Under the pieces are notes generated by a model. It was not told the origin of the DNA. It made no database searches and saw nothing but the letters and a program-made list of their open reading frames with translations. Both the position numbers and the translations under genes were made by a program. A stretch of 64,000 nucleotides of DNA. Source: a virus. Taxonomy: Duplodnaviria; Caudoviricetes. Location of the stretch: positions 1 through 64,000 of the IMG/VR virus record IMGVR_UViG_3300021256_000084; one strand, 5' to 3'. This document shows, one piece after another, positions 33,815 through 64,000 of the stretch (position 1 is the stretch's first letter; every line of letters starts with the position of its first letter).

Positions 33815-36760
33815 TTATTTCACACGACATTTTATCTCTACGATTTTACGCGTGCTGTTGTACTCCACTTCCAGAAGCTCTAAGTGTGTGTTGCGTCCTA
33901 AAACGCATTCACTCTCGTAATCGTTTCTTGTTACATATACAGGTGTTCCTTGCGGTATTTCAATTTGCAACTGAAATTTTCTGCTTGTGAATACGTTCAT
34001 GCGTGCATCTGTTGATACAGACATGAAACCTGCATCTGCTTCCAGCTCCTTCAGCGGAAGTGCTTTAAGCTTTGTTGCAATTTCATTGACGCTGAGCTTG
34101 GTTTCGGAATCGACTGGAAGTGTACCACCAAACAAAGGATTTACGCCGTCAAAAGTAAGGTTACGTACTATTTTTATCGGGAACGGCAAACTGTTTCTTG
34201 CGATAACAGCGTCCAGTGTCTCAATGGTTTTTATATCATCATCATTTAGCATGCCGCCGTACAAATCCATTGCAAACTGCACGTTCTTATTGCCTTTAAG
34301 CGTACCGACAATCTTGTTTTTTCCTTTGCCATGCACGTCGCGCAAAGCTCCATTTATTTTGAAGCTGTTGCTCGTGCCAATGTAGCCGCCGGGAGAGTGT
34401 GCCCACGTCTGCGTCTTCTCTGTATTTGTGATGTCACAAATTTTTGCCAATACCATATGCTGCTTAGACGTAAGATACACACAGCCGTCCACAATGTTGA
34501 TGTCGGCAGCGGAAAGACTTTCTCCATGCTGCGTGAACAGTCGTACCATTGCATCTTTAATCTCCGTGTCAGTCATTTTTTGCGTGGGCATGGCTGCTGC
34601 ACTTGCCTTTGGCGTCGCACTTGCCGAACTTTTAGCAGCCCTTAAGCGTGCTTCTGCTTCCAGCCGCTTAACGCGTTGCTTTAAGTCTGCGGCTTTTGCA
34701 CGTACTTCCACAAGGCTTGCGTCGTTGTCCTTAAGCATGCCCTGCAATTCAACACCGAGATTAGAAACTATCTTACTTCGCGTTGTAGCTGCAAACTGCA
34801 ATTCATGCTGTATGCTTGCACTTATTGCATTGAACTCTATTCGCTTGTTCACGATGTCAAGCCTATGCTGTAATGCGGCTTTTGAAATCTCTTTCGTTTT
34901 GTACTTCGTGCCGTTGACAACGTTAATTTCACGCTCCAAGCGACCTTTGAGGAACTGCAATGAAGCGTCTGTATCAAAGTCCCACGTCCAGCGGTTGAAT
35001 GTACGCTGTATGGCTGCTTGTGCGCCTTGCACTTCTGCTGACGTAAACTGCTTAAACCACGCAAGGGCGTTTGGTGTAAACTGTTCCAGCTGTGCTGCCT
35101 GCTTCTTGACTTCCGCAATCTGCTTTGCAAGCGTCTTGGTAAGGTTGGCAGCTTCTTTGAGCTTGTACTGCAACAGCAGGTCACGCAACAGCCCTGCGCT
35201 GGCTGACGTGTCAACGAAAGCAAGCTTGTCGGCAACGGCAAGCACGTTGCGCCCTGTCTTGAGAATAAGCTGATGTTCCTTCTGCCGCTCATACCATGCA
35301 ACCTTAACGGACATGTCGTTACGCTTGGCGTGCCGTGTGTCTGCAAGCTGCTGTATGCGTATGCCGTTCCAAATGTCCGCGTATGCAGTCTTGATTGCGT
35401 CCTTGTTTCCGCTGCTAATCGCGTTTTGCAACGCGGTAAGGCGTTTTAGCAGCACGGGCGAGCTACTATTCAGGCCAGCATTACTTATTGCCCTGTGCGC
35501 CCTTTTTAGCTGGTATTCATTCCAACGCTTCTGTGCTGCTGCATCATCACGCTGCGCGTGCCGCCACACCTTTGCTTCTTCGGGAGTACGTCCGCGTGTC
35601 TGCAAGCCCATGTCCTGCAACTTCTCCTTGTCGAAGATAGTACGCAGGTACTTCGGGTTATCACGGAACACGTAGGCAAGCGTGCCGCGCTCACCTGCAC
35701 GCTGGATCTGCTCGCGGTGCTGCTGCAAGTAGTCCTTGTACTGCTGCGGAACGTCCTTAACAGTACCCTTGCACTCAAAGTTTGACACGTCCTCGCCTGC
35801 ACGTTTCCGACGGTGGTACTCGCGTATTTCCTCACGGCTGGCAGTAATGGCGCTTGCAGCACACATGCACTGCGGATGGAAGCCGCTAAACTTGAAGTCC
35901 TTCGGGTAGTCGCCCCATAACTCGTCGCAAATATCGGGCTCGGGATGCTGCGGACTGCCCCAAATGCGTATGCCAATGACAAACGGCTCGTTTTTCCAAC
36001 GCTCGCAGTTTGCGTAATGGTAAGACATGTTTATTTCCGTGCGCATCAAGCGGAACGTGTTGCGGTAGCTGCTGCGGTACACGCCCTGTCCTACTTCTTC
36101 CAGCGGTGCTTCAATGAAGCGTACTTTGCCTTCCTCGTCAATAATGCGCTTGTGCCACTTCACAACGTCCTTGGCAGCACCGCCCTTGGTAATGACCTTG
36201 TGATGATAGCGTCTGTACATCATGTCCGGCTCTTGCAGCTGCCCGTACACCTTACGGGAAAGCTCCGCTGCACTTGTGCCCTTTGCAAGCCCGTCCGTAA
36301 TGACGTTGCTCATAGCCATTTCAAACTCGCTTTTCGTCTGCTCCGCATAGTTCCACACACGCTGCGACAAGTTCAAGCCCTGCGGCGTGTTCATGCGCTG
36401 CGCAAGGAAAGCACTTGCAGCAAGGTTGCGTACCTGCATGACTGCTTCATCGTTGAGCACCGTGTAGCCTTTCAGTGTGCGTGCATCCTGCCCGAAAGCA
36501 AGCCCTACGCCCGACTGTATGCCGCTTTGCGCGAGCAACAGCTGCTCGCGGACGTACTGACGGAAGATGTCGTTAAGACGCGTCTTAAGCTCTGGGAAGT
36601 TGTCAAACAGAAACAGCGCGTCCTCACTAAGCTTCTGTTCAACGTTGATGCCCAGTGCTGACAGCTGCTTGATAAACTTGCCGTACAGCATGCCTATCCG
36701 TATGTTGTACTTGGCAAACAGTGCCGTGAGTTCTTTTTGCTGCGCTATGTTTTGAGCCAT
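33815..36760 (-). CDS. MuF (SPP1 gp7-like) minor head protein with C-terminal ADP-ribosyltransferase domain
   Basis: N-terminal LSQRVW, RLMRTE, HPQCMC MuF motifs; C-terminal IVRN, FMSVST, ESE (R-S-E class); follows portal. Confidence 0.88.
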   Translation of the reverse strand: MAQNIAQQKELTALFAKYNIRIGMLYGKFIKQLSALGINVEQKLSEDALFLFDNFPELKTRLNDIFRQYVREQLLLAQSGIQSGVGLAFGQDARTLKGYTVLNDEAVMQVRNLAASAFLAQRMNTPQGLNLSQRVWNYAEQTKSEFEMAMSNVITDGLAKGTSAAELSRKVYGQLQEPDMMYRRYHHKVITKGGAAKDVVKWHKRIIDEEGKVRFIEAPLEEVGQGVYRSSYRNTFRLMRTEINMSYHYANCERWKNEPFVIGIRIWGSPQHPEPDICDELWGDYPKDFKFSGFHPQCMCAASAITASREEIREYHRRKRAGEDVSNFECKGTVKDVPQQYKDYLQQHREQIQRAGERGTLAYVFRDNPKYLRTIFDKEKLQDMGLQTRGRTPEEAKVWRHAQRDDAAAQKRWNEYQLKRAHRAISNAGLNSSSPVLLKRLTALQNAISSGNKDAIKTAYADIWNGIRIQQLADTRHAKRNDMSVKVAWYERQKEHQLILKTGRNVLAVADKLAFVDTSASAGLLRDLLLQYKLKEAANLTKTLAKQIAEVKKQAAQLEQFTPNALAWFKQFTSAEVQGAQAAIQRTFNRWTWDFDTDASLQFLKGRLEREINVVNGTKYKTKEISKAALQHRLDIVNKRIEFNAISASIQHELQFAATTRSKIVSNLGVELQGMLKDNDASLVEVRAKAADLKQRVKRLEAEARLRAAKSSASATPKASAAAMPTQKMTDTEIKDAMVRLFTQHGESLSAADINIVDGCVYLTSKQHMVLAKICDITNTEKTQTWAHSPGGYIGTSNSFKINGALRDVHGKGKNKIVGTLKGNKNVQFAMDLYGGMLNDDDIKTIETLDAVIARNSLPFPIKIVRNLTFDGVNPLFGGTLPVDSETKLSVNEIATKLKALPLKELEADAGFMSVSTDARMNVFTSRKFQLQIEIPQGTPVYVTRNDYESECVLGRNTHLELLEVEYNSTRKIVEIKCRVK

Positions 36761-41232: not shown

Positions 41233-41844
41233 TTACTCAATCTTAGTGTTGTTGACTAAGTTCATGAACTCGCTGCGTACAGCTGCGTCCGTGAGGAACA
41301 GCCCTTTAAGGCAGGAGTTTGACATAATGCCCTTCTTGCGTGCTCCGCGTATTTCCTTGCACGTGTGATGGGCTTTCATTACGCAGGCAATGCCCAGCGG
41401 AGCGCACTCTGCTGGCACGTCGCTTGTCAGTGCTTCCTCAATCATATTCACTACGTCATGCACCAAACGCTCCTGTATCTGCATGCGTGCAGCACAGTAG
41501 TCCACGACGCGGGCAATCTTGCTCAAACCGAGTATCTTGCCGTTGGGGTGTGGAATGTAGGCAAAGAAGTACTGCCCCATGAAAGGCAGCACGTGGTGCT
41601 CGCACATTGAAGCAAAGTCGCCCGTGTCCGTAACCATTTGGTCGCACACAAGGTTGTCCTTGCCGTTGTCAAACACTGTAATCTTGGGCTTCTGCGCCGG
41701 GTCGTAGCCGCGAAACAGCTCTTTCCACATACGCACGACACGCTCAGGCGTGCCTTGCAGCCCAGCACGGTTCGGGTCTTCGCCCACATACTCCAGCAGC
41801 TCGCGCACATGCTGCTCTGCTTGTTCCTTTGTCAGCTTTGCCAT
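41233..41844 (-). CDS. folE: GTP cyclohydrolase I
   Basis: TPERV, SMCEHH, GLSKIAR, QIQERL and HTC..IRG motifs; start at MAKLTKEQ. Confidence 0.95.
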   Translation of the reverse strand: MAKLTKEQAEQHVRELLEYVGEDPNRAGLQGTPERVVRMWKELFRGYDPAQKPKITVFDNGKDNLVCDQMVTDTGDFASMCEHHVLPFMGQYFFAYIPHPNGKILGLSKIARVVDYCAARMQIQERLVHDVVNMIEEALTSDVPAECAPLGIACVMKAHHTCKEIRGARKKGIMSNSCLKGLFLTDAAVRSEFMNLVNNTKIE

Positions 41845-41848
41845 AGTG

Positions 41849-42187
41849 CTATTCCTCGTCAAGTTTGTAAGTAGCAACGTTGCTCTCGCTTTCCTGCACG
41901 TCAGCACGGTAGCACTGCGGAATGGTGTCAACAATCCACTTTGCAATGTTCTCGGCTGTCGGGTTGAAAGGCAGCAGCTCGTTAAGGTTGCCGTGGTCGA
42001 GCCTTCCGTGTATTGCACGCTTGATAAGCGCGAAGTCTGCAACCATGCCGTCCTTGTTCAGCTCCTTTGCCTTGCAATAGACGGTGACAATCCAGTTGTG
42101 GCCGTGCAAGTTTGCGCACTTGCTTTCGTAGGACAGCTGCAAGTGATGGCAGGCAGCTATTTCCATTCTTTTCTTTACGTAGTACAT
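41849..42187 (-). CDS. queD: 6-carboxy-5,6,7,8-tetrahydropterin synthase
   Basis: ACHHL, C.NLHGHNW, LDHGNLNE and NPTAENIA motifs. Confidence 0.93.
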   Translation of the reverse strand: MYYVKKRMEIAACHHLQLSYESKCANLHGHNWIVTVYCKAKELNKDGMVADFALIKRAIHGRLDHGNLNELLPFNPTAENIAKWIVDTIPQCYRADVQESESNVATYKLDEE

Positions 42188-43598: not shown

Positions 43599-44360
43599 CT
43601 AAAAGTTTACGTCTGCATACTTTTGGAACTTTACCCATTCAAGGAAGTTATGCGTCATGACCTCTTTGTAATTGCGTATCTTTGTTCCCTCGGGTCTGTT
43701 GCAGGTCTTTACTTTGCCTGCCTGCAAATCAAACTTGCAATACCCTCCCGATATGTTACCCATGAGCCAACTGCTGCTGTCAACGCTGTCGAAGCGGAAG
43801 TTGCCAAGCTTGGAGCTTGTATAGCCAAGCCCGTGTATCTTTGCGTTGTTCTTGTGTGCAGTAGCAATAAACCATGGAAAGTATTTCTCTATCACGCTTG
43901 ACGGCAGGCCGTCAGTGAGTATGCCGCCGAAAGCCACGTATGAGTAGTTTTTGCACATCCATTCAAAGTACTGCTTGCCACGCGAGAGGTGAAACACTGG
44001 AATAGAACGCTTGCCCGTAAGGCTCTCCAGCCGTTCACGCAGTTGCTCCACCTTTTCCAGCCCGACAATGCTGTCAATGTCAAGCTCAAAGAAGTGCTTG
44101 ATGTCGTATTTGTTTATGAAGTCCGCGTAGGCTTCCGTGTACTTCATCCAGTCCGTATCGTCCTTGCCCTTTACCATGTAGGTGAACGCTCCGCTGTCAA
44201 GCAGGAAATTGTCGTTAGCCGTCCAAATGCTTTCGGGAGCTTTCTTGTTGCTCAAAAGGTAGTAGTAGCTTTCGAGCAGGTACACACTGCGGAAGTCTAT
44301 GTCGGAAAACTCCCGAATGTTCTTGTACTGATTTATTGCTGCTGCCAGGAATACACGCAT
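43599..44360 (-). CDS. dpdA: DpdA-like DNA transglycosylase (TGT fold)
   Basis: LLDSGAFT, PVFH, FGG, IHGLG and DSVDSSSW motifs; adjacent to the preQ0 genes. Confidence 0.8.
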   Translation of the reverse strand: MRVFLAAAINQYKNIREFSDIDFRSVYLLESYYYLLSNKKAPESIWTANDNFLLDSGAFTYMVKGKDDTDWMKYTEAYADFINKYDIKHFFELDIDSIVGLEKVEQLRERLESLTGKRSIPVFHLSRGKQYFEWMCKNYSYVAFGGILTDGLPSSVIEKYFPWFIATAHKNNAKIHGLGYTSSKLGNFRFDSVDSSSWLMGNISGGYCKFDLQAGKVKTCNRPEGTKIRNYKEVMTHNFLEWVKFQKYADVNF

Positions 44361-45766: not shown

Positions 45767-46939
45767 TTATTTAGTATCATTTAACAAATAGTCTATCACG
45801 GCACGGTTGGCTTCGTCCACCTTTTTATTGCTTGCGCGTATGTACACGCGTGTAACGTTTGCGCCCGAAGTCTGCGAATGCCCAAGCGCACGGCTGATGG
45901 TGTCGTCGGGAATATCAAGGTTGTACGCAAACGTTGCCCACGTGTGGCGTGCCCAGTACAGCGTAAGGTTATCAATGCCTATGCGCTTACCCATTTCGCC
46001 CAGCCAGTAGTTACATTTGTTGGCGAACATGTTGTAGCGCGAAACGCTGTCAAACCATACGAGCAAGTGCTGCCTGCCGCGATACTTGTCAAGCAGTGCC
46101 TGCGCTTCCGGCTCAATCTTTATGTCGTACAGCTTGTGTGTCTTGCTGCGCAAATACTGCAAGCGTCCGTCCGTCGGCTCTGCGAGGTCTGCAAGGTCTG
46201 CGACGTTAATGCCAATGAGGTAGAACGTAAGCAGAAAGCAGTCCTTGTAACGCTGTTCGTGCGCTGCACAAGGCAACGACATGAAGCTGCGCATCTGCTG
46301 TAGGCTTAAGCTGCGCTTCTGCGTTTCCTCGTGCTCCATTTCAAACTTTCGGAAAGGGTAGCACGTAATGGTGTCCTGCTTGATGGCGAAGTTGAACACG
46401 GCACGCAGGTTACGGAAGTGTATGCTGCGCCCGTTGGGCTTCGGGCTGTACTTCATGAGGAACAGCTTGAAGTCATTGAGCCAGCGCACCGTCATTTCCT
46501 CAAACGTAAGGCTGTTCCAGTCCGCAAACTTGCCCACAAGGGCTGCTGTGCGTGCATAAATTCGCTGTGTGCTGCTGTTTTGCTTCAACGCGATAAACTG
46601 CTCGTAGGTGTCCCGAAACAAGTGCGGCAGCTCGTTCTCATCCTCTTTTTGCAGCAGGGCTATGATCTGCTTGTCTGTCAGCGAGCGCATCTTGCCGCTT
46701 GCCTGCAACTGCAACAGCTTTGTTTCCGCGTCGCTTTGCCGCTGGCGCAAGACAGCGTTGAGCACCTTGCGGTTTGCCATGTTGACAATCTGCTGCGTCC
46801 GCTCGTTCCAGTCCTGCGGCAGCACGTCTATCCCGACAGGCACATAGAACGTGTGCTTGCGGGCTACAGCAAGCTTCAGCGGATAAGTGCCGTCCTTGTG
46901 CTTGTAACGTGTGTCAAGCCGTACTGATACCTTTACCAT
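45767..46939 (-). CDS. int: Tyrosine integrase, Bacteroidales type
   Basis: LDTR..KDGTYPL arm domain; catalytic R position reads N (GINVAD), then K, Y.ARHTWAT, ALGH and Y motifs. Confidence 0.93.
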   Translation of the reverse strand: MVKVSVRLDTRYKHKDGTYPLKLAVARKHTFYVPVGIDVLPQDWNERTQQIVNMANRKVLNAVLRQRQSDAETKLLQLQASGKMRSLTDKQIIALLQKEDENELPHLFRDTYEQFIALKQNSSTQRIYARTAALVGKFADWNSLTFEEMTVRWLNDFKLFLMKYSPKPNGRSIHFRNLRAVFNFAIKQDTITCYPFRKFEMEHEETQKRSLSLQQMRSFMSLPCAAHEQRYKDCFLLTFYLIGINVADLADLAEPTDGRLQYLRSKTHKLYDIKIEPEAQALLDKYRGRQHLLVWFDSVSRYNMFANKCNYWLGEMGKRIGIDNLTLYWARHTWATFAYNLDIPDDTISRALGHSQTSGANVTRVYIRASNKKVDEANRAVIDYLLNDTK

Positions 46940-47210: not shown

Positions 47211-47837
47211 TTATTTCAGTGACATCAGCATCAGCACTCTATACCATGCGCGAATGTCCTCTTTGGCAATCGTGAAATCGTCAAAGTCGGGGTTGATGCT
47301 GCGGCACACTATACGGCTGTCATCCTCTTTGCAGGGAAACACGTTCTTTACAACAGGGCCGTTTACCGTATCAAGCTCGTAAGTCCTGCCCCACTCAATG
47401 AACGCTGCTTCGTTGATACGCTTGACGAGTATCTTGCAGCCGCTCGGGTATTCGGGAGCCATGCTGTCGCCCGTTATCGTGCTGGCGTGGCTTGCATCCT
47501 TTATCGGGCTTACGACCATTTCACATTCGTATTCGTGTACCTGTGCTTCAAAATCCGTAGGACTGCCACCCTGCACACTGATGGGCAGCAGCGGAACATA
47601 GACTGCATCATCCTTACCAGCCGCAAACAAGTGAGCAGGCATCATTTCGCCCTCGCCCGTTTTCAGCCAGTCAGCATTGACTTGCGGGAACTGCTCACGC
47701 AGTGCTGCAAGCACCTTTGCGCTCGGCGACTTCGTATTCTGCGCGTAGGCATTGCTAACGCCGAGCTTCTTCTGTAACTGCGCAACACTTAAGCCAAGCG
47801 CATACGCGAGTTTGCTAAATCGTTCCTTAAAATCCAT
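47211..47837 (-). CDS. CI-like repressor (HTH plus S24 peptidase)
   Basis: N-terminal HTH, VNADWLKTGEGEM, ITGDSMAPEYPSG and VVKNV motifs. Confidence 0.9.
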   Translation of the reverse strand: MDFKERFSKLAYALGLSVAQLQKKLGVSNAYAQNTKSPSAKVLAALREQFPQVNADWLKTGEGEMMPAHLFAAGKDDAVYVPLLPISVQGGSPTDFEAQVHEYECEMVVSPIKDASHASTITGDSMAPEYPSGCKILVKRINEAAFIEWGRTYELDTVNGPVVKNVFPCKEDDSRIVCRSINPDFDDFTIAKEDIRAWYRVLMLMSLK

Positions 47838-47876
47838 AAAAAAGCTATCCAAAAATCTTAATAATATGTAATTTTG

Positions 47877-53375: not shown

Positions 53376-53390
53376 TCTTCCTTGCAGCGT

Positions 53391-54116
53391 ATGAAACTGA
53401 CAGTATTAGGCAGCGGCTCGGACGCTAACGGCTACATACTACAGAATGAGAGTGAAGCAATCGTACTGGAGTGCGGTTGCTCACTCGCACGCTGCGAAGA
53501 AGCGTTGGGCTACAACATCAGCAAGGTTGCTGGCTGCTTGATAACGCACGAGCACGGCGATCATGCACGTTTTGCGGCTAAGTATGTGCAACGCATGCCG
53601 CTTTATGCGACAAAGGGCACGCTTGACGCGCTGCGCTTGCAGCAGGGAAGCAACGCTACGGCACTGGAGCTTAAGCGCACAGTGCAGATAGGCAGCTTCA
53701 AGGTTATGCCCTTTGCGACACAGCACGACGCGGCACAACCTTGCGGCTACCTTATCAAGCATCCCGACTTTGGGCTGCTGCTGTTTGCTACGGACACGTT
53801 CTACCTGCGCTACACGTTTGCAGGGCTGAACTACGTCATGCTGGAGTGCAACTATGACAAGCGCATACTTGACGAGAACACGCGCAACGGCGTTGTTCCT
53901 ATGGTTGTACGCGAGCGTGTGCTGCGTAGCCACATGAGCGTCGTTGACTGCATAAAGACGCTCAAAGCAAACGACCTGTCACAAGTACGCGCAATCGTAC
54001 TGCTGCACCTTTCAAGCAGCAACAGCAACGCGGACAACTTCTTGGAGCGCGTCAAGCGCAATACGGGCAAGCATACTGTTGTGGCACAAAAAGGCGTAGA
54101 ACTGGAATTGTTATAG
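53391..54116 (+). CDS. MBL-fold metallo-hydrolase (exonuclease-like)
   Basis: THEHGDH, TQHDA, ATDT and LLHLS motifs. Confidence 0.88.
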   Translation: MKLTVLGSGSDANGYILQNESEAIVLECGCSLARCEEALGYNISKVAGCLITHEHGDHARFAAKYVQRMPLYATKGTLDALRLQQGSNATALELKRTVQIGSFKVMPFATQHDAAQPCGYLIKHPDFGLLLFATDTFYLRYTFAGLNYVMLECNYDKRILDENTRNGVVPMVVRERVLRSHMSVVDCIKTLKANDLSQVRAIVLLHLSSSNSNADNFLERVKRNTGKHTVVAQKGVELELL

Positions 54117-60794: not shown

Positions 60795-62345
60795 ATGAAT
60801 TTATTTACAAGCAATCCCGACTTCTACCCTACGCCCGAAAACGTCATTGAAAAAATGATGTTGGGTGAAAACGTCGCAGGCAAGACGGTGTTAGAGCCGT
60901 CTGCCGGAAGCGGCAACATAGTGCGCTGGCTGCACAGCAACGGAGCTGCACAGGTGCTTGCGTGCGAAAATGACCCGCACTGCCGCAAGCTGCTGGCAGG
61001 CGAGCAGCTTATTGCAGAGGACTTCCTTACAGTAACGCCCGACATGGTAAGCCACGTGCAGTACATTGTAATGAACCCACCTTTTAGCCACGGTGCAGAG
61101 CATATCCTGCACGCTTGGAACATTGCGCCCGCTGGCTGCACTGTCATTGCGCTGTGCAATACAAGCAACCTGCGCAACGAGTACTACAACACAAAGCACT
61201 TGCAGTTGAGCGAGACAGTGCAGTTGAACGGCAGCAGCGAGGACTTGGGCAGCGCGTTTGACAACGCAGAGCGTCGCACAAACGTAAGAGTGTCGCTTGT
61301 CAAACTGTACAAGCAGGGCAGCGGCGAAAGCGAGTTTGACGGCTACTTCTTTTCCGCTGTTGACGAGGACGCTGCAAGCGAAAAGGAAGGGCTTGTGTCC
61401 TACAACTTCGTGCGTGACATCGTAGGTCGTTACGTGCAGGCTGTAAAGCTGTTTGACGGTGCTATGCAGGCAGCGAAAGCTATCAACGAAGCAGCGGACT
61501 TTTTCGATTACACTACTGTAACGGACGAAAAGACAGGCGAGCAGAAGCAGATAAAGAACACCTACGGCAGCTTGCCCGTCACGTTTGGAGCAATACTGTG
61601 CAAGTCGGACGATGATGTACGCGGAGATAACGGCACAAAGATAACGCACGAGCAGTACAAGAAGTATCTGCAAAAGCACTATTGGCGCATCATCTTCAAG
61701 AAGCTTAATATGGAGCGTTACGCTACGAAGCAACTGCGTGAAAACATCAACAAATTTGTGGAGCAGCAGACCAACGTGCCTTTCACTATGGGCAATATCT
61801 ACCGCGTGCTGGATATTGTCGTACAGACAAACGGACAGCGTATGCTCAACGCGCTTGTGGAAGCTTTCGACACGATATGTAGCTTGTCAGCTGAAAACAG
61901 CACTGCACGCGAAACGTGGAAAACGAATGCAAACTACATGGTAAACAAGCGTTTCATCTGCGACTGGATAACTACCCTAAGCAGCTGGGGCGGCAAGATG
62001 GAAGTGCGCGAGTGGAGCAGCTATAACGACAACGCGACAAAGATTAACGACGTGTGCAAAGCACTGTGCTACATGACCGGGCGTAATTGGGAGGAAATAG
62101 GCACGCTGGGCGAGTACGTGCGTAAGAACGATCCAGCTTGGGGCACTTGGTTTGAATGGGGATTTTTCCGCTGCAAGGGCTTCAAGAAAGGCACGATGCA
62201 CTTTGAATTTTTGGACGAGGACGTTTGGTTTAAGTTCAACTATACCGTTGCACAGCGCAAGGGCTGGAACTTGCCCAAGAAAACGCAGACGGAGCGCAAG
62301 CCGCGCACAAAAAAGCAGGAAGCAAAGGAAACATCATTATTTTAA
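60795..62345 (+). CDS. Amino (N6-adenine type) DNA methyltransferase with DUF4942-like C-terminus
   Basis: DFYPTP, LEPSAGSGNI and VMNPPF motifs; C-terminal FFRCKGFKKGTMHFEF. Confidence 0.85.
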   Translation: MNLFTSNPDFYPTPENVIEKMMLGENVAGKTVLEPSAGSGNIVRWLHSNGAAQVLACENDPHCRKLLAGEQLIAEDFLTVTPDMVSHVQYIVMNPPFSHGAEHILHAWNIAPAGCTVIALCNTSNLRNEYYNTKHLQLSETVQLNGSSEDLGSAFDNAERRTNVRVSLVKLYKQGSGESEFDGYFFSAVDEDAASEKEGLVSYNFVRDIVGRYVQAVKLFDGAMQAAKAINEAADFFDYTTVTDEKTGEQKQIKNTYGSLPVTFGAILCKSDDDVRGDNGTKITHEQYKKYLQKHYWRIIFKKLNMERYATKQLRENINKFVEQQTNVPFTMGNIYRVLDIVVQTNGQRMLNALVEAFDTICSLSAENSTARETWKTNANYMVNKRFICDWITTLSSWGGKMEVREWSSYNDNATKINDVCKALCYMTGRNWEEIGTLGEYVRKNDPAWGTWFEWGFFRCKGFKKGTMHFEFLDEDVWFKFNYTVAQRKGWNLPKKTQTERKPRTKKQEAKETSLF

Positions 62346-62363: not shown

Positions 62364-62969
62364 ATGAAAGAAGTAACATTACAAGTACCCGACGGAAAGA
62401 AAGTCGAGTGGAGAGAAGTAAACGGCGTAACTGTACCCGTGCTTGTTGACGAACAGCAGCAGGACAACCGCCCCGTAACAGAACGCATAAAGACGTTTGA
62501 GGATGCGTACTACGCACTTGACAGCGAACACCCATTGAGAAAGGAGTGGGATGCACTCGCAGAAGCAATACGTCAGTCCGTCGGCATTGGCAAGGACATC
62601 GTAGCGTTCCTGCAACTGCGTATTATTGCAGCAGCACTTAACGAGGGGTGGGTGCCGCAGTTTACTAACGACGAGTATCGCTATTATCCGTACTTTGTGC
62701 TGTACACGCAGCAGGAAGTGGACGATATGGACGAAGAGGACAAGAAAGAGCTGTGGATGTTCGGCGGCCGCTCGAACTCCGGTGCGGATTGCGGTCTCGC
62801 TTATGCGTACTCGGACGGCGCTTGGTCGCGCTCGGACGCGGCCTGCTCGGCTCGCCTTGCTGTGAAAAGTTCGGAACTTGCAAAGTATTTTGGAAAGCAA
62901 TTCATTGGCATTTGGGCTAACTACGCTTGCCCTCCTGCTTTTGATTGCGCCAGCCCCAAAAAAGCGTGA
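62364..62969 (+). CDS. Protein with C-terminal DGR variable-region signature
   Basis: ERIKTFEDA, ALNEGW.P, YYPYF, then FGGRSNSGADCGLAYAYSDGAWSRSDAACSARL. Confidence 0.75.
   Translation: MKEVTLQVPDGKKVEWREVNGVTVPVLVDEQQQDNRPVTERIKTFEDAYYALDSEHPLRKEWDALAEAIRQSVGIGKDIVAFLQLRIIAAALNEGWVPQFTNDEYRYYPYFVLYTQQEVDDMDEEDKKELWMFGGRSNSGADCGLAYAYSDGAWSRSDAACSARLAVKSSELAKYFGKQFIGIWANYACPPAFDCASPKKA
62751..62861 (+). other. Putative DGR variable region (VR)
   Basis: Fixed TCG/GCG/GGT/TGC codons alternate with NNC/NNT codons, as expected from A-to-N mutagenesis of AAC/AAT codons. Confidence 0.65.
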
Positions 62970-63022
62970 ACGTCAACGTTGGGTGCGCTCGCAAGAGCGC
63001 ACTCGCACATAAAAAAATAACT

Positions 63023-64000
63023 ATGAGCAAGAATGAACTTGAAAAGCAGTATAGCAAGCTGCTGAAAGAGATTGAGACAATGCGAATGTACGACGGCAGG
63101 AACAAAGGCGTTGACGTGTATGTTTGCGACAAATGCGGTAAGACTATCTACACGCGATACAAGGACAAGGGCGTTACGCCTTTCACTATTGCGTGCCGGG
63201 ATAATGAATGCAAGGGTACAATGATGCACAACCGCGCCATTTCTGAAATGGACGCTATGCTTAACAAGCTGACTGTGCATAACTGGGTACGCCCTACGTT
63301 GCAGTGGCTTGACAAGCAGCGTCAAAAAGGTAAAGCGGGGCTTGTTGAGCATGTTTTGAATGGCGGTTTGGTTTTGGAAAGCGAGCTGTGATATGGAAAT
63401 AACACCGAAATTCAAATTTGTTGAGGGCAGCTTTGATACAAAGACAAACAAGATGCTTTGTATTGCCAGCGACAATCACGGCACTGTAGAACTGTGCTTT
63501 AAGGAAGAAGGCTGTGGGTGGAATATCCCGTTTGCGAAGATTGAACTGTTCGACAGCGGCTTATACAAGGACTTCAAGGCTACAATGAGTGATGCAAAAG
63601 CGTTGGGCGACGAGATTGCAAGACGCTGGAACGAGTGTAACGATAAAAAGTAACGACATGGAAGCAATAACTATTACGCAGGAACAAAGCGGCTGGAAAG
63701 TGCAGCAGGGCGACAAGTATGCGGACGGATTGTGCTACGATGAAATGATGGGCGTTGTTTCTGCGCTGACAATGCCGAAGCAGCGACCTTGCTTGTCGTG
63801 GATGCGCACAAAGGAGCAGCACGAAGCTTGGGAACGCACAATGAAAGAAGCGATTGACAAACGCAGCAGCGCACATAAAAAAAATGACTATGCTTAAACC
63901 AGGTAAAAGACAACTGAAAGACATCACCGACCAAGAGCTTCAGGTGATAGTAGAAATGAGCCATCACTACGGCTGCAAGGACTTCTGGGGCAACCCAGTC
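63023..64000 (+). CDS. Hypothetical genes (63023-63391, 63393-63653, 63658-63897, and partial 63884-64000)
   Basis: ORF track with starts adjusted; the last runs off the window. Confidence 0.6.

Follow-up and report, generated by a model that had tools for sequence, protein, structure and literature searches.

A second, remote DGR target in the early region of a Bacteroidales phage

Our main finding is that the ORF at 62364-62969 of a phage record of 86,161 bp, rated complete, is almost certainly a remote target on which the phage's own DGR acts or has recently acted. In our explanation, which as a whole is very likely, this second target would encode a soluble, early intracellular binder; a counter-defence role for the protein is possible but somewhat doubtful. 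The earlier note was made from the window alone (bases 1-64000 of the record, the whole stretch of DNA that was analysed at that point) and had already read the gene as a remote DGR target. This reading is supported by the restriction of differences between template repeat (TR) and variable repeat (VR) to adenines, by the presence of a reverse transcriptase (RT) and by the variation among homologues. The idea of a second, remote DGR target is already published (Benler et al. 2021, PMC8008677; Nature 2025, PMC12629997). The locus described here differs from the published ones in its backbone, its single-ORF RT and its methyltransferase neighbour, and the arrangement itself is known.

The DGR cassette and its two variable repeats

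We searched the whole 86,161-bp record with 62730-62880 as the query and found matches on the minus strand at 82850-82959 (86% identity) and 83136-83248 (84%). In a DGR, errors enter at random opposite adenines as the TR RNA is copied into cDNA, and this cDNA replaces a VR that shares a 3' homing sequence. The parts of the system in this genome are listed here by position.

62364-62969, plus strand: remote DGR target gene, 201 aa, phrog_11581 family
62748-62861, plus strand: VR2, codons 129-166 of the 201-aa target protein
62748-62846, plus strand: mutagenised part of VR2, codons 129-161, with 15 TR/VR2 mismatches, all at TR adenines
62847-62861, plus strand: IMH-like 3' end of VR2, TCGGCTCGCCTTGCT (IMH, initiation of mutagenic homing)
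62867-62879, plus strand: hairpin AAGTT-CGG-AACTT (5-bp stem, 3-nt loop), 5 nt 3' of VR2
81159-82601, minus strand: RT, 480 aa, single ORF, matching RVT_1 at 3.2e-9 and phrog_1423 'reverse transcriptase' at 3e-47
82846-82959, minus strand: TR, an AAC-rich copy of 114 nt
83079-84434, minus strand: tail-type target gene, 451 aa, phrog_5302 at 1.2e-21, with VR1 at its end
83136-83249, minus strand: VR1, inside the tail-type target gene

The strongest evidence comes from the distribution of differences between the repeats. VR2 has 17 mismatches to TR over 114 aligned bases, and these occupy 17 of the 26 TR adenines and none of the 88 non-A positions (hypergeometric P = 4e-14). VR1 differs from TR at 14 positions, of which 13 are TR adenines and one is the first aligned base (P = 2e-10). 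A chance resemblance between VR2 and TR is ruled out by these adenine statistics, and the complete lack of non-A differences between the two implies recent homing into VR2. Read in the VR2 frame, TR encodes ...FGG N S NN GA N CGLAYA N S NN AWS N S N A N Y SARL; ten of its codons are AAY, and mutagenesis at adenines cannot create a stop. The mutable sites of VR2 are the ten AAY-derived codons, two TAY codons, one ATG and one GAG position, and its potential amounts to about 1e14 peptides on the fixed scaffold ...FGG.S..GA.CGLA.A.S..AWS.S.A..SARLA.

The sequence that the earlier note had quoted as a VR is present as written inside the plus-strand ORF. Of the range given with it, 62751-62861, the codons are all there, but the quotation starts at 62760, and the preceding 62751-62759 (CTG TGG ATG) is also part of the repeat. 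The ten codons it had singled out as AAC/AAT with randomised adenines (cgc tcc gat tac gac ggc cgc gac gcc tgc) are the very ones that differ from TR, where their counterparts are nine AAC/AAT codons and one TAC.

At the 3' end, the last six bases read CTTGCT in VR1, VR2 and all relatives, and CTAACT in TR. Because residues 165-166 are invariant in the family, the two terminal A positions mark an IMH/IMH* boundary and are not mutagenised. Judging from its sequence, 62847-62861 may serve as an IMH-like element. The hairpin that follows VR2 appears in the minimum-energy fold, and that fold is no better than those of shuffled sequences (z 0.83); a 4-bp stem 3' of VR1 is likewise not better than shuffled sequence. 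The pairing at 62867-62879 is kept in the relative L025 via two synonymous changes and is not kept in L026. The hairpin is a possible, weak target-site structure.

The statement that the window holds neither an RT nor a template is literally true, since both lie 17-20 kb past its end in the same genome, and the rest of the record supplies what the earlier note had proposed to search for. The template sought there as a repeat of ~110 nt is the 114-nt TR, which differs from VR2 only at adenines, and the RT is the 480-aa ORF matching RVT_1 and phrog_1423. This ORF is intact and carries the motifs YLDD and LGIRPSQ, the latter of which we take to be the DGR-type motif 4, [ILV]GxxxSQ. NCBIfam and PADLOC gave generic RT matches only, and neither has a DGR-specific model. 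The cassette is a minus-strand array at 81.1-84.4 kb, in which the tail-type target with VR1 is followed by TR and then by RT. A 113-aa 'ORF' over TR matches phrog_5302 only because TR resembles a VR. No match to PF05635, the one model used for the common but not obligatory DGR accessory protein Avd, was found across the whole genome, and the stretches between VR1, TR and RT leave no room for an ORF. The RT has an additional C-terminal domain of ~140 aa (phrog_19665), which might stand in for Avd. In the mechanism we propose, retrohoming would take place at VR1 beside the cassette and, in trans, at VR2, 20 kb off on the other strand.

Natural variation at VR2 and the same layout in other phages

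The target protein belongs to a large family. At 90% identity the phrog_11581-type family comprises 4526 clusters, and at 50% identity 1192 representatives, many of them singletons on short contigs. Prophage copies occur in the genomes of at least 202 species, mostly Bacteroidales, with Bacteroides, Prevotella, Muribaculaceae, Rikenellaceae and Phocaeicola among the host groups. The nearest relatives come from bovine metagenomes. Our search of viral contigs for related loci returned relatives of 53% identity or less, and the closer ones were obtained by exact protein look-ups; the VR2 variation described next was measured between contigs and samples.

The earlier note had pointed to position-specific variation among homologues as a mark of diversification, and such variation is seen at the AAY-coded residues. 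Three contigs (L024, L025 and L027) diverge from the target gene by 1-3% outside VR2 and by 17-23% inside it, and nearly all of their differences in VR2 fall at TR-adenine positions. Among the 18 proteins of the two closest 90% clusters the scaffold is essentially invariant and almost only the AAY residues vary, the varying sites being residues 136, 138, 139, 142, 147, 149, 151, 152, 156, 158, 160 and 161. The same pattern extends to 121 members with at least 55% identity, where entropy reaches 3.2-3.5 bits at the ten AAY residues and 2.4-2.5 bits at the two TAY residues, and stays at 0.2-0.6 bits at the scaffold residues in between. Because near-identical strains, and the family, vary at AAY residues and the match to TR at non-A positions is perfect, we take the diversification of VR2 to be recent or ongoing.

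It is very unlikely indeed that VR2 is a relic of past homing or duplication that the DGR no longer diversifies. The weak hairpin after VR2 and the missing recognisable Avd would fit a relic, as would the variant P0005, which is identical on contigs of several samples, so that turnover is not necessarily rapid. A relic would gain changes at non-A positions too, however, and VR2 has none among 88; its IMH-like end is conserved, and near-identical scaffolds carry a large number of different VR2 variants.

We examined seven other genomes for the layout. The combination of remote VR, TR and tail VR is present in six of these besides the phage described here, as listed with genome size.

LoVEphage (71 kb): remote VR, TR and tail VR, with mismatches at TR adenines in 17 of 17 and 11 of 11 cases
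G001 (87 kb): remote VR, TR and tail VR, with mismatches at TR adenines in 12 of 12 and 15 of 15 cases
Versailles (58 kb): three copies, remote VR, TR and tail VR
G003 (102 kb): three copies, remote VR, TR and tail VR
G004 (56 kb): three copies, remote VR, TR and tail VR
G005 (53 kb): three copies, remote VR, TR and tail VR

In the seventh, G002, which is 96% complete and carries a family member, no TR copy was found. All five relatives probed for an RT (LoVEphage, Versailles, G001, G003 and G004) have one. LoVEphage and G003 show no similarity to the TerL of our phage, and Versailles and G004 show a marginal one; for this reason we regard the target family and the DGR as co-occurring on unrelated backbones. 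The target homologues in LoVEphage, BI-TP1 and Versailles have a comparable non-structural setting. The closest annotated homologues are those of LoVEphage, BI-TP1 and PV4-TP1 (42-45% identity over residues 31-187), and they lie among methyltransferases, a TIGR02757/DUF2400 protein and RtcB.

The comparison with the sister phage G001 gives a closer look at how the remote target and the cassette are connected. The two phages share TerL at 86% identity, and their RTs are 27% identical. Between the two, DNA identity is 84% through the methyltransferase gene and the opening 143 nt of the target gene. Over 62507-63022, which takes in the 3' three quarters of that gene with VR2, the sequence is replaced in G001, and similarity returns (82%) at 63023, which is the next gene, so that a mosaic breakpoint falls inside the target gene. 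In each of the two phages VR2 matches its own TR. Because both differ in G001, the cassette and the VR2 segment have changed in step over a distance of 20 kb, whether by exchange or by divergence, as a functional dependence of VR2 on TR predicts.

The target protein and its genomic setting

The target protein matches phrog_11581 at E 2.6e-50 over residues 30-189. Because the homology spans this length, the protein belongs to the family by its scaffold and not by the VR alone. It has no match in Pfam, NCBIfam or PADLOC, and Pfam searches of 96 relatives gave no family in common. Inspection by eye showed neither a signal peptide nor a membrane span. In longer phrog_11581 members the N-terminus is extended by 100-180 aa of unrelated sequence; a known or effector domain was looked for in these fused forms and none was found. 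A Tad2-like match below the cut-off (E 0.0011) was rejected, as it lies in the N-terminal extension of a longer form and is absent from the protein here. The N-terminal hairpin module of ~35 aa (62364-62470, PDGKKVEW...VLVDE) is exchangeable: the cluster member P0276 has other first ~35 aa and a near-identical rest of the protein.

A C-type lectin fold is possible for the protein: the motif in its VR (FGG...G..CG...ARLA) has the form usual for CLec proteins, and a C-type lectin domain was stated for the Quimbyvirus homologue (Benler et al. 2021, PMC8008677). Two AlphaFold2 runs, one with an alignment of 96 diverse sequences and the other of 150 closer ones, gave models with mean pLDDT of 80 and 75; in both it falls below 50 over residues 133-162, which lie in the VR. 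The confident parts are helices at residues 38-93 and 170-188 and the small N-terminal hairpin. For the target models, Foldseek on the PDB and VIA-align returned nothing above noise, a fold search of BFVD returned only uncharacterised viral homologues, and the ESM Atlas gave unnamed viral clusters only. PDB-sequence profile matches to TIM44 and to a zinc finger were dismissed as chance matches.

The genes that define the surroundings of the target gene are the following.

45767-46939, minus strand: integrase, adjoining the CI-like repressor
47211-47852, minus strand: CI-like repressor (phrog_4 transcriptional repressor, 3.8e-20; phrog_6201 CI-like repressor, 4e-6)
60795-62345, plus strand: DNA methyltransferase with C-terminal DUF4942, 516 aa (PF13708, E 8e-28)
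66391-67560, plus strand: RtcB ligase, beyond the window, 3.4 kb 3' of the target gene

The phage is a Bacteroidales phage and, to judge from the integrase and CI-like repressor that it encodes, is temperate. The structural genes (tape measure, major head, portal and TerL) are on the minus strand. The rightward (early) block that contains the target gene begins at the repressor (47211-47852). This block spans ~47.9 kb to 72 kb and encodes a replication-initiation O-like protein, an SbcC-like ATPase, a RecT-like protein, a metallo-hydrolase, a pyrophosphatase, the DNA methyltransferase and RtcB, with the SbcC, RecT and hydrolase genes further upstream of the target gene. The description of the target as a non-tail early gene agrees with this position in a rightward block with SbcC-like, RecT-like, methyltransferase and RtcB genes.

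The gap between the methyltransferase-DUF4942 gene and the target gene is 18 nt. Residues 8-175 of the methyltransferase match DNA methyltransferase PHROGs, and the PADLOC models MTase_II and mad2 also match. A fixed functional pairing of the target with this upstream methyltransferase was considered and ruled out, since a different neighbour is found in L026, LoVEphage and Versailles. On the 3' side of the target gene, the region 62975-63025 holds a GC-rich inverted repeat of 8 bp, GTGCGCTC-GCAA-GAGCGCAC. The motif GCGCACATAAAAAAA(N2-3)ACTATG occurs directly 5' of two start codons (62975-63025 and 63868-63893) and, from its sequence and placement, may be a leader or translation-initiation element.

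Several other genes of the phage deserve mention in their own right. Homologues of GTP cyclohydrolase (phrog_2197) and queuine tRNA-ribosyltransferase (phrog_887) are encoded at 41233-42042 (-) and 43599-44360 (-), which suggests a 7-deazaguanine-type modification of DNA or tRNA and a possible further anti-restriction function. The 981-aa head-morphogenesis (MuF-like) protein at 33815-36760 (-) matches the Bxa ADP-ribosyl transferase family phrog_16625 at 2.4e-66. The gene at 53382-54116 (+) encodes a metallo-beta-lactamase-fold hydrolase (phrog_392, 1e-69); its match to the anti-Pycsar protein Apyc1 is sub-threshold (E 0.0033, 17 bits against a cut-off of 50) and probably reflects a shared fold only.

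Known systems and the role of the target

The DGR of Bordetella phage BPP-1 consists of Mtd, Avd, TR and Brt, with a single target, a tail-fibre protein encoded beside the cassette, and it has an Avd gene and a strong GC-rich hairpin. The phage here resembles it in the adenine-specific mutagenesis from TR to VR, in the AAY-rich template, in a VR placed towards the 3' end of its target gene and in the IMH-type 3' boundary. It differs in having two targets, one of which is 20 kb off, on the opposite strand and non-structural, in having no detected Avd and in having only a 5-bp hairpin after VR2. Multi-target DGRs of bacteria (Treponema denticola, Legionella, cyanobacteria) use one TR to serve several VRs in trans, some of them far from the RT. 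The targets there are cellular surface lipoproteins or signalling proteins, whereas the target here is a phage protein of 201 aa in which no signal peptide is seen. Cyanobacterial and gammaproteobacterial multi-target DGRs are cited in PMC8008677.

The closest precedents are in phages. The Quimbyvirus DGR has two targets, one of them in the structural module, and for the second, non-structural one a role in phage-host conflict was proposed (Benler et al. 2021, PMC8008677). In four Bacteroidota prophage species a second VR lies at a distance, close to DNA methyltransferases (Nature 2025, PMC12629997), and both papers place second DGR targets among methyltransferase and RtcB genes (PMC8008677, PMC12629997). 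LoVEphage ('Quimbyviridae') appears to be the Quimbyvirus phage of Benler 2021; PMC12629997 gives two references for it, apparently both discovery papers. Its protein QVQ57199.1 (MW660583) is 45% identical to our target over residues 40-187, its remote VR is ~15 kb from TR, and the methyltransferase/RtcB setting is as here. It differs in genome size (71 kb as opposed to 86 kb) and in TerL, for which no similarity was found. Its RT matches in three pieces, as published for the three-frame Quimbyvirus RT, in contrast to the one 480-aa ORF here, and its upstream neighbour is the TIGR02757/DUF2400 protein where ours is the methyltransferase-DUF4942. BI-TP1 and PV4-TP1, from the same GenBank series (PQ5712xx/PQ5713xx) as the prophages of PMC12629997, carry homologues that are 42-45% identical. 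The genome described here is not among the isolates of that study, and we have checked the link between the family and the DGR in seven genomes with different backbones.

The function of the target protein can be approached from its setting. We propose that it would be a soluble, early-expressed intracellular binder, whose variable surface could engage a variable factor of the host (or of a rival phage) in a conflict of defence and counter-defence. We infer this binder and conflict role because of the fixed position of the gene among DNA-modification, recombination and RNA-repair genes. The intracellular host-interaction protein that the earlier note had imagined is a plausible description. 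As a more tentative and, taken as a whole, rather unlikely extension, the phrog_11581 proteins could form an intracellular 'adaptive' counter-defence module, an early binder re-randomised by the DGR that travels with its matching RT-TR cassette among unrelated Bacteroidales phages. The binder would then neutralise variable host immune proteins or recognise rivals. This travelling-module proposal draws on the joint replacement of the cassette and the VR2 segment between phages that share TerL at 86%.

Two other roles for a diversified protein need to be weighed against the intracellular binder. The protein could be a virion component, either a receptor-binding or a tail accessory protein, that is encoded outside the structural module, and VR2 would then broaden the range of adsorption in the way that VR1 does. 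The homologue in Versailles carries the annotation 'tail protein', the phage DGR targets that are known are mostly tail proteins (PMC12636319), and the protein matches the tail family phrog_5302 at E 4.7e-4. That match, however, is limited to residues 132-170, which is the TR-derived segment, and the 'ORF' over TR matches likewise. Structural-protein homology outside the VR was looked for and none was seen, and in all the phages examined the gene lies within a replication, recombination and DNA-modification block, on the opposite strand to the tail genes or far from them. We therefore consider a virion role improbable. About as poorly placed is a sensor or superinfection-exclusion factor that would act against competing phages, on behalf of the lysogen or of the phage, and would not be a defence inhibitor. 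The integrase and CI-like repressor of a temperate phage are in keeping with such a factor, as is the tie of bacterial DGR targets to defence and signalling cited in PMC8008677. Against it, the gene lies 14.5 kb into a rightward, lytic-type block and not beside the repressor and integrase, and neither the target protein nor the longer forms examined have a fused effector domain; we regard this alternative as quite unlikely too.

The soluble intracellular binder thus remains our preferred reading, and the locus offers a clean case for testing what a hypervariable non-structural protein does. It combines an intact RT in a single ORF, a VR2 that matches TR at every non-A position, a large set of natural VR2 variants on a common scaffold and a sister phage, G001, in which the cassette and the part of the target gene that holds VR2 have both been exchanged. 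As the family has more than 4500 clusters at 90% identity and prophages in at least 202 species, any function found for the protein would apply widely in gut and rumen viromes.
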